A stretch of 64,000 bases of DNA from an uncultured Dehalococcoidales bacterium (lineage in GTDB: Bacteria > Chloroflexota > Dehalococcoidia > GIF9 > UBA5629): NCBI GenBank assembly GCA_964596125.1, contig CAZQRP010000018.1, forward strand, positions 4,245 to 68,244. Reading direction: 5' to 3'. Below the pieces are notes generated by a model, which worked only from the letters and a program-made list of their open reading frames with translations, had not been told where the DNA came from and searched no databases. Positions 6,316-9,010 of the stretch are shown piece by piece (the first letter of the stretch is position 1; every line of letters begins with the position of its first letter). Both the position numbers and the translations under genes were made by a program.

Positions 6316-9010
6316 GGTCTACAATCCTTTCCAGCTTTACCGGACATGTTTTTAGAGCTGGGGTCTTGCTCTGAAGGTCTAAAATAGTGTCGAATAACAT
6401 ATTGACGGAGCTTTCCGGGAATGACATGGGCATGAAAATCATTCCGGGATTGAGCGTGTTCATTATTTCGGCTGTGGCAGTCACCTCGCCTGTAGCCGAT
6501 ATTACTTTGACCTTTTCACCCTGGACAATCCCAAGCTTTTTAGCATCGGCCTCATTGATTTCTACAAACGCTTCTGAAGAATATTTCCTCAACCTTGAAG
6601 ACCTGGAACTCCGGCAGCCGGTGCCAAATTGAAACAGCGTACTCCCGGTTAATAAGTTAAATGCATATCCATCCCCCCAATTCTCCGGCTGTGGAATGTA
6701 TTCGACCGGGCAGAAGCGACCGAAACCGCTGGGAAATTGCCCCTTGTGGAGACGTCTGTTTACAGGCCAACTACTGCCAAATTCATACAAATACTGGCTC
6801 TTTATATCAGTATCACCATAACTTACCTCGTGGTATAACGGCACCTGCTCTACAACCTCGGCTAGAACCTCTTGGGGGGAAGAATATGGCATCGTATGGC
6901 CCAACTTAGTTGCCAGTTTAAGTATAATCTCCCAATCAGGTAAACAATTCTCGAACGGTTCCAGGGCTTTCCTCACTGTTCGCATCCTGCCCTCAAAATT
7001 GGTAAACGTACCATCCTTTTCAGCAAAGCTGGAAGCTGGTAAAACTACGGTTGCTAACTTTGCTGTTTCGGTAAGGAACATATCCTGCACGACCAGGAAG
7101 TCAAGAGATGCCAGGGCTTCCTCCACCAGGTTCCGTTGTGGAAAACTCAGTACCGGATTTTCTCCGATAATATACATTCCCTTGATCTTCCCCTCTTTAG
7201 CCCGGTCGACCATTTCCAGGGCTGTTAGTCCTTTATTGACAGGTAATCGGCAGCCCCATCGTTCCTCAAATGCTTTTATGGCCTGTGCATCTTGTAAGTC
7301 CTGATATCCAGGGAGAAAATCGGGCAAGGCGCCCATGTCACATGCACCTTGCCCGTTGTTTTCTCTTTGCAGTGCGTAGATGCCGCCGCCACCACCTCCG
7401 ATATTTTCAGTTAACATCGCTAAGTTTGCCAGCGCTGTTACTCCGCTTGTCCCATTAATATGCTGTGTAATTCCGCTTCCATAGACGATTGCAGAGCGGC
7501 TGGCACTGGCGAAAAGCTTAGCTGCAAGGCGTATCTCCTGAGCTGCGATACCGGTACTCTTCTTTATGTACCCGGGAGTGTATTTCTGTAAATAATCGGT
7601 AAATGATTCAAAGTCACCCATTTTTCTAGCGATATATACGCTGTCAAACCAGTCTTCGTCGATAATCACTTTGGAGATAGCATTTATCAGAAGCAGATCA
7701 GTCCCAGCTTTTGGTTTCAACCAGAGATGCGCCCAGGACGCCAGCTTTGTCTGCCGCGGGTCTATTAACAATAATCTGGCCCCTTTATACTTGACTGCAC
7801 GCTTTACAGCGTATTCGACCAGCGGTGCAGAGGAGGAGGGATCTGCCCCAATGACCAATATCACCTCTGCCTGTTCGAGGTCATCAAGTGAGTTGGTAGT
7901 GCCGGGGAAGCCGGTGGTCTTTCCAAGACCTGCATAGCTTGCGGAGCTATATAACCTGCTTCCATTATCAATGTTATTTGTACCCAGAACACATCTCGCA
8001 AACCTTTGCAGTAAGTAGTTTTCTTCGTTTGTACACTTGGATGAACCGAAAACAGCCAGACTGTCCGGCCCGTAAGACTCTTTTATTTGCTTGAATCGGT
8101 CAGCTACCAGGTCAATGACTTCTTCCCAGGATGCCGGCATAAAGTCGCCATTCACTTTTACCAGAGGAGTAGCCAGCCTATCTGGGCTGTGCACGAAGTC
8201 GCAGCCGTAACTTCCCTTCACGCAAAGGGTGCCTTTCGTCAGAGAGCTATCTTTATTGGGTCTAACGCGAAGTAACCTGTTGTTTTTAACTTCGAGGCAA
8301 ATGTCACAGCCACATCCGCAATACGGGCAAACTGTTTGGACGATCGTGTTAGTTGCCCCTCTATATATTTCTCCATTTTCCATCAATGCACCTGTTGGGC
8401 ATTGTTCTACACAGGTCCCACAGAAAGTACACTCGGAGTTTTCCAGTGGTAAGTCATCAACTGTTGCCGGTTTGGAGATGAACCCCCGATGAATATAGTC
8501 TATGGCACCTACAACTACCAGTTCCTGGTCTGCCCTGATGCATCTCGCACATAGAATACATTTACTGAGGTCCCTGACAATGAATGGATTGATTTCCTCA
8601 GTAGTAGCAAGTTGGGGAATTCTCTGAAGTCCAATCCACCCGATGCCCATATCGGAGGCAATCTTTCGTAATTGGCAGCGATTACCCTTGTCACATACGA
8701 TGCATGTATCGGGATGACTGGCCAACATTAACTTGAGTATAGTCTCTCGACGTTCCAGTACTCGCGGAGAATACGTATTAATTATCATCCCTGGAGCTAT
8801 TGGAGTAACACAGGACGACATTAGAGCACCTGAGTGCTCATCTTCCACTATGCAGATGCGACAGGCACCAATTGGCTCCAGATGAGAATCATGGCAAAGG
8901 GTCGGAATATCTACGCCTGACTCACGCGCCAGATCTAAAATGGTCATGCCAGGCTGACCACTTACTTCGCGTCCATTGAGCGTGATAGTAATGGTGTCTA
9001 CAGTCAGCAT
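6308..9010 (-). CDS. Formate-dehydrogenase-alpha-like molybdopterin-fold subunit with an NuoG-type N-terminus (2Fe-2S + His/Cys 4Fe-4S + two 4Fe-4S); catalytic Sec/Cys-His replaced by Tyr-Ser
   Basis: 900 aa. N-terminal motifs: C..GACRIC, HPDTCIVCDKGNRC, CILCARC and CTFCGTCVEQCP. Molybdopterin-domain cluster: CPYCGCGCDIC...C. The active-site block reads NNIDNGSRLYSSASYAGL, where FDHs have ...ARxC/U-H..SVAGL. Confidence 0.85.
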   Translation of the reverse strand: MLTVDTITITLNGREVSGQPGMTILDLARESGVDIPTLCHDSHLEPIGACRICIVEDEHSGALMSSCVTPIAPGMIINTYSPRVLERRETILKLMLASHPDTCIVCDKGNRCQLRKIASDMGIGWIGLQRIPQLATTEEINPFIVRDLSKCILCARCIRADQELVVVGAIDYIHRGFISKPATVDDLPLENSECTFCGTCVEQCPTGALMENGEIYRGATNTIVQTVCPYCGCGCDICLEVKNNRLLRVRPNKDSSLTKGTLCVKGSYGCDFVHSPDRLATPLVKVNGDFMPASWEEVIDLVADRFKQIKESYGPDSLAVFGSSKCTNEENYLLQRFARCVLGTNNIDNGSRLYSSASYAGLGKTTGFPGTTNSLDDLEQAEVILVIGADPSSSAPLVEYAVKRAVKYKGARLLLIDPRQTKLASWAHLWLKPKAGTDLLLINAISKVIIDEDWFDSVYIARKMGDFESFTDYLQKYTPGYIKKSTGIAAQEIRLAAKLFASASRSAIVYGSGITQHINGTSGVTALANLAMLTENIGGGGGGIYALQRENNGQGACDMGALPDFLPGYQDLQDAQAIKAFEERWGCRLPVNKGLTALEMVDRAKEGKIKGMYIIGENPVLSFPQRNLVEEALASLDFLVVQDMFLTETAKLATVVLPASSFAEKDGTFTNFEGRMRTVRKALEPFENCLPDWEIILKLATKLGHTMPYSSPQEVLAEVVEQVPLYHEVSYGDTDIKSQYLYEFGSSWPVNRRLHKGQFPSGFGRFCPVEYIPQPENWGDGYAFNLLTGSTLFQFGTGCRSSRSSRLRKYSSEAFVEINEADAKKLGIVQGEKVKVISATGEVTATAEIMNTLNPGMIFMPMSFPESSVNMLFDTILDLQSKTPALKTCPVKLERIVDHG

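Follow-up and report, generated by a model that had tools for sequence, protein, structure and literature searches.

A stretch of 64,000 nucleotides (nt) from an uncultured Dehalococcoidales bacterium (contig CAZQRP010000018.1; hereafter the window) carries on its minus strand a gene for an FdhA-like protein, which we call P0001 and which is the subject of this analysis (Table 1). P0001 has a NuoG/HoxU-like iron-sulfur (Fe-S) front end followed by a full-length molybdopterin-oxidoreductase-like domain, and Pfam finds Fer2_4, NADH-G_4Fe-4S_3, Fer4_Nqo3, Molybdop_Fe4S4, Molybdopterin and Molydop_binding in it. The reading frame is unbroken over its 900 amino acids (aa), with no in-frame stop. 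The stop of P0001 overlaps the start of a NuoE-like gene by 8 nt, and the following junctions, to a NuoF-GltD fusion, MetV and MetF, are short. In the fusion, the GltD/NfnB-like part (2x[4Fe-4S], FAD, NAD(P)H) sits at the C-terminus of NuoF. P0001 is not a member of NuoG itself: its score against TIGR01973 (NuoG) is 339.5 bits, below the cut-off of 470.05, and its neighbours are only NuoE, NuoF-GltD, MetV and MetF.

Residues of the active site were placed by a phmmer search of P0001 against all PDB chains, in which residues 7-892 of P0001 were aligned. The FdsA subunits of the NAD-dependent formate dehydrogenases (FDHs) of R. capsulatus (6tg9_A) and R. aestuarii matched with an E value of about 1e-177, ungapped around both motifs of the site. 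In the ligand loop FdsA reads NNTDTCARVCHSPTGYGL and P0001 reads NNIDNGSRLYSSASYAGL; in the Arg block FdsA reads GVNPLRGQNNVQGSCDMG and P0001 reads GIYALQRENNGQGACDMG. The cryo-electron microscopy structure of the R. capsulatus enzyme (RcFDH) showed that Cys386 is the molybdenum (Mo) ligand, that His387 and Arg587 are catalytic and that Val592 faces the sulfido ligand (PMC7171172). In P0001, Cys386, which marks the position of the Cys or selenocysteine (Sec) ligand of Mo or tungsten (W), is replaced by Tyr354, His387 by Ser355, Arg587 (Ec Arg333) by Gln548 and Val592 by Gly553. Judged by this alignment, P0001 has lost all four active-site residues compared with RcFDH. The minus-strand DNA around the site reads aat gga agc agg tta tat agc tcc gca. 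An earlier note on this DNA had read residues 351-357 as S-R-L-Y-S-S-A, with a TAT codon for Tyr354 and Tyr-Ser at the catalytic Sec/Cys-His position, and both the DNA and the ungapped alignment to Cys386-His387 of 6tg9_A agree with it. Recoding of selenocysteine at residue 354 was ruled out, since the codon is neither TGA nor TGY and the frame contains no stop.

The earlier note had also described an R-x-N-N-x-QG block as retained, and this reading was out of register. The canonical block L-R-G-Q-N-N-V-Q-G aligns without gaps to L-Q-R-E-N-N-G-Q-G in P0001, so that the Arg position holds Gln548, the Arg that is present, R549, lies at +1, and the position of Val592 holds Gly553. Correction of the register strengthens the conclusion that P0001 is not an FDH. 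A Cys elsewhere in the protein that could ligate Mo/W, which the earlier note had raised, was sought among the conserved Cys of the Mo-like domain, and none was found. C233, next to the ligands of the proximal cluster, is the sole Cys specific to the clade. Canonical FDHs share the conserved C326, C557 and C889, which lie away from ligand position 354. A Tyr-for-Cys variant of FDH was not found in a full-text search of the literature. These comparisons suggest that P0001 probably descends from the alpha subunit of an NAD-linked Mo/W FDH and no longer oxidises formate.

Table 1. Features of the P0001 locus, with positions in the window
Feature	Position	Strand	Basis
P0001, FdhA/FdsA-type "formate dehydrogenase alpha-like" protein, 900 aa	6308..9010	-	ORF translation, Pfam, TIGR01591
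N-terminal Fe-S module, residues 1-220	8351..9010	-	conserved columns, Cys columns
Asp161, fourth-ligand position of first CxxCxxCxxxC ferredoxin-like motif	8528..8530	-	alignment column
Proximal [4Fe-4S] (A1) site, C228-x2-C231-x3-C235...C263, then K265	8222..8329	-	alignment columns
Codons of Tyr354 (TAT, 7949-7951), Ser355 (7946-7948) and Ser356 (7943-7945)	7943..7951	-	minus-strand sequence
Codons of Q548-R549-E550-N551-N552-G553, Gln at catalytic Arg position	7352..7369	-	alignment to RcFDH
C-terminal cap domain, residues 784-895, PF01568	6326..6661	-	canonical-invariant columns
NuoE/HydC-like [2Fe-2S] subunit, 162 aa	5827..6315	-	profile matches
Fusion of thioredoxin-like [2Fe-2S], NuoF (FMN/NADH, [4Fe-4S]) and GltD/NfnB-like parts, ~1020 aa	2763..5837	-	
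MetV, PF12225	2058..2732	-	Pfam
MetF, methylene-tetrahydrofolate (THF) reductase, PF02219	1136..2041	-	Pfam, NCBIfam
Paralogous operon: 225-aa NuoG N-terminal Fe-S module > NuoE > NuoF > MetV > MetF	11184..15221	+	

Relatives of P0001 fall into distinct groups at this site. A genome scan with one genome per species returned 80 loci, which were sorted by aligned columns. A canonical class of 52 loci has ARL[C/U]H and LRGQNNVQG, with C or U at the ligand position in 52/52. All 22 loci with at least 53% identity to P0001 read SR[LM]Y and are called the Tyr clade here. Seven loci from Desulfobacterales or 'Deltaproteobacteria', the delta clade, read GGY-x-[S/H]-G and have no Cys, His or Arg at these positions. 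An orthologue of at least 53% identity was present in about a dozen of 151 sampled genomes of the same class, a patchy distribution. The 120 best database homologues of P0001 are 65-70% identical to it and have names that are mostly Chloroflexota or Dehalococcoidia. Among those that could be matched to the motifs, R-[LMI]-Y occupies the site in all except one (R-L-H) of 103, and Q-R is found at the Arg block in all but 11 of 106. An alignment of 65 close homologues has Tyr at residue 354 in 63, His in one and Cys in one, Gln548 in 64, and at residue 549 Arg in 57 (88%), Met in six, Pro in one and Trp in one. Tyr at position 354 is conserved far beyond chance. The homologues, where the earlier note had proposed to look for the variant, thus have a nearly fixed Tyr within the clade, next to a residue 355 that varies (N/S/G/D/T). 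One member of the clade, P0111, reads SRLCNSAT and thus has regained Cys at the ligand position. It retains Asn355 and Gln548, and we therefore take it for a single-base substitution (TAY to TGY) rather than a working FDH.

That P0001 is still an FDH, with a differently placed ligand or other residues, is extremely improbable. Its score against the FDH-alpha profile TIGR01591 (NCBIfam) is above the curated cut-off, and its homologues are named 'formate dehydrogenase subunit alpha'. Against this, none of the four active-site residues is kept, the Mo-like domain has no conserved Cys peculiar to the clade apart from C233 beside the A1 ligands, and the related StnC protein has no formate activity (PMC7483475). 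The genome also contains a canonical FdhA elsewhere, with ARLCHAPTVAGL and PLRGQNNVQG, which lies beside a HydB-type NuoF and scores 859.6 bits against TIGR01591. AcsB (acetyl-CoA synthase) and Fhs (formyl-THF synthetase) are encoded as well. The organism would thus have no need of P0001 as an FDH, as far as its gene content indicates. Matches of the FDH-alpha profile to the 3.2-Mb genome numbered 73, with ~30 molybdopterin-oxidoreductase genes, and three matches contained a single in-frame TGA.

The Fe-S chain of P0001 is intact. P0001 has the same five Fe-S sites as the alpha subunits of NAD-dependent FDHs. The ligands in the N-terminal module are C39, C50, C53 and C67 for the [2Fe-2S] cluster and H99, C103, C106 and C112 for the His/Cys3 [4Fe-4S] cluster, and the module also holds a 2x[4Fe-4S] ferredoxin-like domain. 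The Cys of the proximal cluster, C228, C231, C235 and C263, are present and invariant in the clade, in line with the earlier note, which had found the N-terminal 4Fe-4S site of the molybdopterin domain kept. K265, the Lys between the cluster and the pterin, is K or R across the clade. The proximal motif reads C-P-Y-C-G-C-G-C, and its extra Cys233 (codon at 8312-8314 of the window, minus strand) is invariant in 65/65 Tyr-clade proteins; 29% of canonical FdhA have it too, but no delta-clade sequence does. Column 161 belongs, we infer, to the A2-type cluster, the bridge to the proximal one, because of the standard ligand pattern of 2x[4Fe-4S] domains and the descriptions of Nqo3 and RcFDH (PMC7171172). 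In the Tyr-clade rows (22 loci plus query) this column has 13 Asp and nine Cys, in the delta clade 7/7 Asp, and in the canonical class 49 Cys and three Asp. Only Cys or Asp was seen anywhere, which suggests that Asp161 ligates a [4Fe-4S] cluster and that the cluster has not been lost.

Conservation in the two parts of the protein differs sharply. A column counted as canonical-invariant if at least 95% of the 52 canonical FdhA sequences agreed in it. At the N-terminal Fe-S positions 30/30 of these are kept in both the Tyr and the delta clade. In the Mo domain 89/143 are kept in the Tyr clade and 79/143 in the delta clade, so that 54/143 are changed in the former. Mean pairwise identity within the Tyr clade is 0.74 in the N-terminal Fe-S module, 0.62 in domains II/III, 0.40 in the linker and 0.52 in the cap; the values for canonical FDHs are 0.46, 0.61, 0.55 and 0.54, respectively. 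Selective constraint has shifted onto the Fe-S wire and away from the catalytic domain, and the chain of five clusters, to judge from these columns, remains under strong selection. A decaying pseudogene or an annotation artefact could explain the loss of the catalytic residues, and yet the frame of 900 aa is intact, more than 100 homologues of 60-70% identity have invariant Fe-S ligands and synteny is conserved; this explanation is hardly credible.

The changes in the Mo domain touch several motifs and are concentrated in polar residues of the cap. Near the ligand loop they are H349N, A351S, C354Y and H355x. In the GxNxxxxHP motif they are N390D and H395A, with D or N at position 390 within the clade. 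Position 517, canonically His, varies among H, Y, N and Q in the Tyr clade. The Arg block has R548Q, G549R, Q550E and V553G, TERR has become FEGR (T672F, R674G) and the W-P-C motif at 741-743 is altered. In the cap, R790 of TTGR is replaced by T, S, A, V or G, and H796G, H863S, N870 and T873F are further changes. The cap has 18 canonical-invariant positions of which 12 are polar, and 8/12 polar residues are lost (T788, R790, H796, R840, H863, E866, N870 and T873). In FDHs the cap residues binding molybdopterin guanine dinucleotide (MGD) are reported to be highly conserved (PMC10869683). Retention of the cofactor was judged here by the conservation of residues.

In an alternative reading the Mo-like domain would still bind Mo/W-bisMGD, through the oxygen of Tyr354 or without a protein ligand, and would work as a redox relay or in non-formate catalysis, for example as a site for the second acceptor of a bifurcating reductase. 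Ser and Asp are alternative metal ligands in this molybdoenzyme family, and we know of no Tyr ligand of Mo/W-bisPGD. Retention would fit the ungapped, full-length domain with its score above the TIGR01591 cut-off, the kept A1 cluster, K/R265 and superfamily-wide positions, and the near-invariance of Tyr354 together with F672, G674, F873, N349 and A395, which are fixed within the clade. MoaC, which was present in 12/13 genomes carrying the Tyr clade, is uninformative because those genomes hold many other molybdoenzymes. Retention is harder to reconcile with the loss of eight polar cap residues, with the variation of positions 790, 517 and 390 within the clade, with the changed Asn and His of GxNxxxxHP and with a constraint on the domain that is relaxed compared with that on the Fe-S module. 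Unrelated residues, moreover, occupy the site in the sister delta clade and in about 100 related subfamilies. We consider a retained cofactor with such a role quite unlikely; the former Mo domain is probably cofactor-less, its bis-MGD having been lost. This loss is rated only as likely, because 28/32 superfamily-wide positions are kept and the domain is full-length.

The same site was followed over a wider range with an HMMER scan of 1.84 billion representatives (50%-identity), of which the best 150 (P0124-P0273) were classified. C-H/R-G was kept in only 47 of these. About 100 had assorted residues at the sites (ST/VK, TM/GL, NW/LK, HA/DR and others), and the representatives nearest to P0001 were all among those with assorted non-canonical residues. 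Degenerate FdhA/NuoG-like proteins, as classified from these residues, form a large and mostly unstudied radiation. Several GltD-FdhA fusions of 1365-1409 aa among the best 150 keep the canonical triad. The site varies freely between subfamilies, as one would expect if it is dead, and this speaks against a Tyr with a new catalytic role. We regard it as very doubtful that Tyr354 is functional and selected in the clade, as a phenolate ligand to Mo/W-bisMGD or as an electron- or proton-transfer residue by cluster A1. To our knowledge, coordination of Mo/W-bisMGD by a Tyr phenolate is not known in the dimethyl sulfoxide reductase family. If Tyr354 were functional, the former FDH site might be the exit or entry for the low-potential second partner of a bifurcating methylene-THF reductase.

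The history of the loss can be read from the tree. IQ-TREE was run twice, once quickly on 79 rows and once carefully with bootstraps on 50 rows. Both trees group the Tyr and delta clades on one side of a split with 100/100 support. The next branch is a canonical sequence, L028, from Dehalococcoidia bacterium CG2_30_46_9 (10007-14277), and the split of the Tyr clade, the delta clade and L028 from the rest is also 100/100. L028 encodes a canonical Cys-His FdhA followed by MetV and MetF. Its FdhA and MetV genes overlap by 4 nt, NuoEF is absent and a RACo gene adjoins. With a root placed among the diverse canonical FDHs, an FDH that was already coupled to MetVF would have lost its catalytic site once. 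The L028 unit itself is a candidate formate-driven methylene-THF reductase. The canonical FdhA loci L029, L051 and L087 also have MetV or MetF nearby.

Synteny, examined by tblastn of window proteins against the loci of the genome scan, connects P0001 with MetVF. The order FdhA-like > NuoE > NuoF(-GltD) > MetV > MetF was found in every sufficiently long Tyr-clade locus (L009, L013, L017, L018, L020, L022, L025, L026 and L027), and L022, from Bacillota, keeps it without GltD. The delta-clade loci L056, L073 and L088 have the same order plus an extra MetF-like gene upstream. Canonical FdhA usually follows NuoE-NuoF(-GltD), without MetVF. This order, MetV-MetF included, is conserved across Chloroflexota, Bacillota and Desulfobacterota. 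In the window a paralogous operon lies ~2 kb away on the opposite strand and has neither a Mo-like domain nor GltD. Its stand-alone G subunit is 47% identical to residues 7-209 of P0001, ungapped. A NuoEF-MetVF unit without any Mo-like domain therefore exists in this genome.

The module inventory of the P0001 operon also resembles that of the Stn transhydrogenase. StnABC consists of a NuoE-like subunit, a NuoF-like subunit and StnC, in which GltD is fused to a NuoG-like part (PMC7483475, PMC10482914). The FdhF-like domain of StnC is catalytically inactive, has no formate activity and mediates tetramer formation (PMC7483475, PMC10482914). Stn/NfnABC and the P0001 operon share, over three genes, NuoE- and NuoF-like subunits, a GltD-type NADPH module and a NuoG-like subunit with an inactive FDH domain. 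In S. ovata, metVF is immediately followed by the stn genes, and Stn is nevertheless purified as a transhydrogenase free of MetVF (PMC7483475). P0001 could by analogy be the Fe-S subunit, still a dead FDH, of a separate Stn-like transhydrogenase whose genes share a transcript with metVF but which does not bind MetVF, and StnC (8oh5_C) and NfnC (9bov_A) are indeed among its PDB matches. These are partial and weaker matches (E about 1e-82 in phmmer), and the much weaker similarity suggests independent inactivation. The G subunit contains GltD in StnC and NfnC, but here GltD is joined to NuoF, and P0001 has no GltD part. The FdhF-like part of StnC (8oh5/8oh9) is shorter (residues 683-1172) and the Cys-His loop of NfnC, from a Bfu-type NfnABC, is degenerate with deletions, whereas the FDH-like domain of P0001 is full-length and its loop ungapped. 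MetVF, moreover, is within the P0001 operon. The gene order that includes MetV-MetF is conserved over three phyla with tight gene spacing, and L028 joins a canonical FdhA directly to MetV. L022 and the second operon of the window lack GltD and still have NuoE, NuoF and G beside MetVF; those units cannot be NADH/NADPH transhydrogenases. A transhydrogenase is thus an unlikely explanation of the P0001 operon.

The arrangement has been noted before: Yi et al. 2021 (PMC8515935) gave the name 'X type' of methylene-THF reductase (MTHFR) to genes for NuoEFG homologues that precede metFV in Dethiosulfatarculus sandiegensis. In its passages on this type, the paper gives the distribution as Desulfobacterales and Chloroflexi, calls the type unstudied and suggests that it is electron-bifurcating. 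In the window, genes for NuoE, NuoF and a NuoG homologue are directly upstream of metV-metF, and the P0001 operon has the same arrangement and distribution as those passages describe. The same passages contain no description of the G subunit as an inactivated FDH or of the Tyr and Ser-Gly signatures, nor of the NuoF-GltD fusion or the canonical FdhA-MetVF sister. Our search of the literature found no characterisation of NuoEFG-MetFV of the 'X type' after Yi et al. 2021. What is new here, relative to what those passages contain, is an inactive FDH-like NuoG-type subunit in an arrangement noted in 2021 and never studied.

Our data suggest that P0001 is probably a non-FDH, NuoG-like subunit for electron transfer and scaffolding in an 'X-type' NuoEFG-MetFV reductase. 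In such a five-subunit methylene-THF reductase, with the NuoE-like subunit attached, the electron donor would be NADH, acting at the FMN in NuoF, or NADPH, acting at the FAD in the GltD part fused to it, or both. From there the electrons would travel along the Fe-S clusters of P0001 to MetV and on to the flavin of MetF, where methylene-THF would be reduced; in an oxidative Wood-Ljungdahl pathway the flow would be reversed. The former Mo domain may be a docking or oligomerisation scaffold, like the inactive FdhF-like domain in StnC. The residue replacements and their conservation, the synteny, the tree and the shifted constraint are shown by the analysis; we infer the physical association with MetVF, the direction of electron flow, the absence of bis-MGD and any electron bifurcation. 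The earlier note had proposed that P0001 probably does not oxidise formate, and this is supported by the four replaced active-site residues, the 54/143 changed Mo-domain positions and the canonical FdhA elsewhere in the genome. Its suggestion of a NuoG-like scaffold or electron-transfer subunit in a MetFV-linked complex agrees with 0/30 changed Fe-S positions, the inverted constraint, synteny and the precedent of StnC. A different substrate at the old Mo site, which it gave as an alternative, is disfavoured.

Several observations weigh against this assignment. The TIGR01591 score of P0001, 710.6 bits, exceeds the curated cut-off of 666.25, and P0001 matches true FDHs end to end, unlike NuoG or StnC. 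Its Mo-like domain is full-length and gap-free, and the proximal A1 cluster and K/R265 are retained. Superfamily-wide positions, defined as canonical-invariant columns also conserved in six distant molybdoenzymes of the same genome, are kept at 28/32, including DPR, D438, GENP and EKxGTxTN. The near-invariance of Tyr354 calls for an explanation, structural or otherwise. The separate purification of Stn, despite stn adjoining metVF in S. ovata, speaks against a physical link of the trio of P0001, NuoE and NuoF-GltD with MetVF (PMC7483475). Finally, the pocket is not visible in an AlphaFold2 model of P0001 built with 65 clade members, which is of low confidence (mean pLDDT 64.5, pTM 0.58). Confidence is low at residues 350-360, 548-574, 671-675 and 790-812. 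The Fe-S module, which is functional, also scores low, and low confidence at the site is therefore no sign of an empty pocket. A Foldseek search with this low-confidence model found an FDH-like fold, with NAD-dependent FDH alpha subunits as the best matches (TM about 0.55-0.60).

Loss of function in a molybdoenzyme fold has parallels in other electron-transfer complexes. NuoG/Nqo3 of complex I likewise joins this Fe-S front end to a molybdopterin-oxidoreductase-like domain, and in Nqo3 that domain is cofactor-free. P0001 differs from it in a Foldseek TM of about 0.45 (with the low-confidence model), in the lack of nuoA-N neighbours and in the A2-type motif, which P0001 keeps. QrcB and ActB also have the molybdoenzyme fold without cofactor. 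In Dehalococcoides the FDH-like OmeA carries Ser at the ligand position (PMC5736913). OmeA, QrcB and ActB, as is proposed for P0001, place the fold in a new electron-transfer complex after loss of Cys/Sec, but they belong to other subfamilies (periplasmic or membrane-associated, FdnG-like) and have other partners. The closest comparison group remains the FDH alpha subunits, namely FdsA (6tg9/6tga), the R. aestuarii protein (9wxb/9ktl), M. extorquens Fdh1A (7vw6) and B. subtilis ForC (8rqz), which match residues 7-892 with E values of 1e-160 to 1e-178; P0001 has the domain order of the NAD-dependent FDH alpha subunits throughout. Like them, P0001 is predicted to partner NuoE- and NuoF-like subunits. 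Unlike FDH operons with FdsC/FdsD-type accessory genes, the P0001 operon ends in MetV-MetF.

Four MetF loci are present in the genome, and no two of them share an input module. The two in the window (1136-15221) have FdhA-like/NuoE/NuoF-GltD-MetV and NuoG-N/NuoE/NuoF-MetV modules. The other modules are a 712-aa GltD-like + MvhD(FlpD) fusion with MetV, and MvhD alone before MetF; the two further loci are at C5:52000-64000 (L089 2730-6443) and C4:93000-105000 (L090 5380-6758). Double-receiver proteins without an output domain are encoded beside two MetVF operons, at 9096-9881 of the window (minus strand) and at 6586-7395 of L089 (plus strand). A NarL-type regulator is found near each of them, and a GAF-PAS kinase is also present at C5. 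This hints that the MTHFR paralogues may be under dedicated regulation.

The name 'formate dehydrogenase subunit alpha' in the databases is probably wrong for P0001. Since its homologues have this name, metabolic reconstructions of Dehalococcoidia and sulfate reducers may credit them with a false formate-oxidising enzyme. The canonical FdhA-MetVF unit, the Tyr clade, the Ser-Gly clade and StnC/NfnC form a graded series from molybdoenzyme to scaffold, comparable to NuoG in complex I. The electron donor and energy coupling of MetVF-type reductases are still debated in the Wood-Ljungdahl field (PMC5736913, PMC8515935, PMC7483475). The conserved five-gene unit is a concrete candidate, open to expression and assay, for solving the problem of the electron donor of MetVF.

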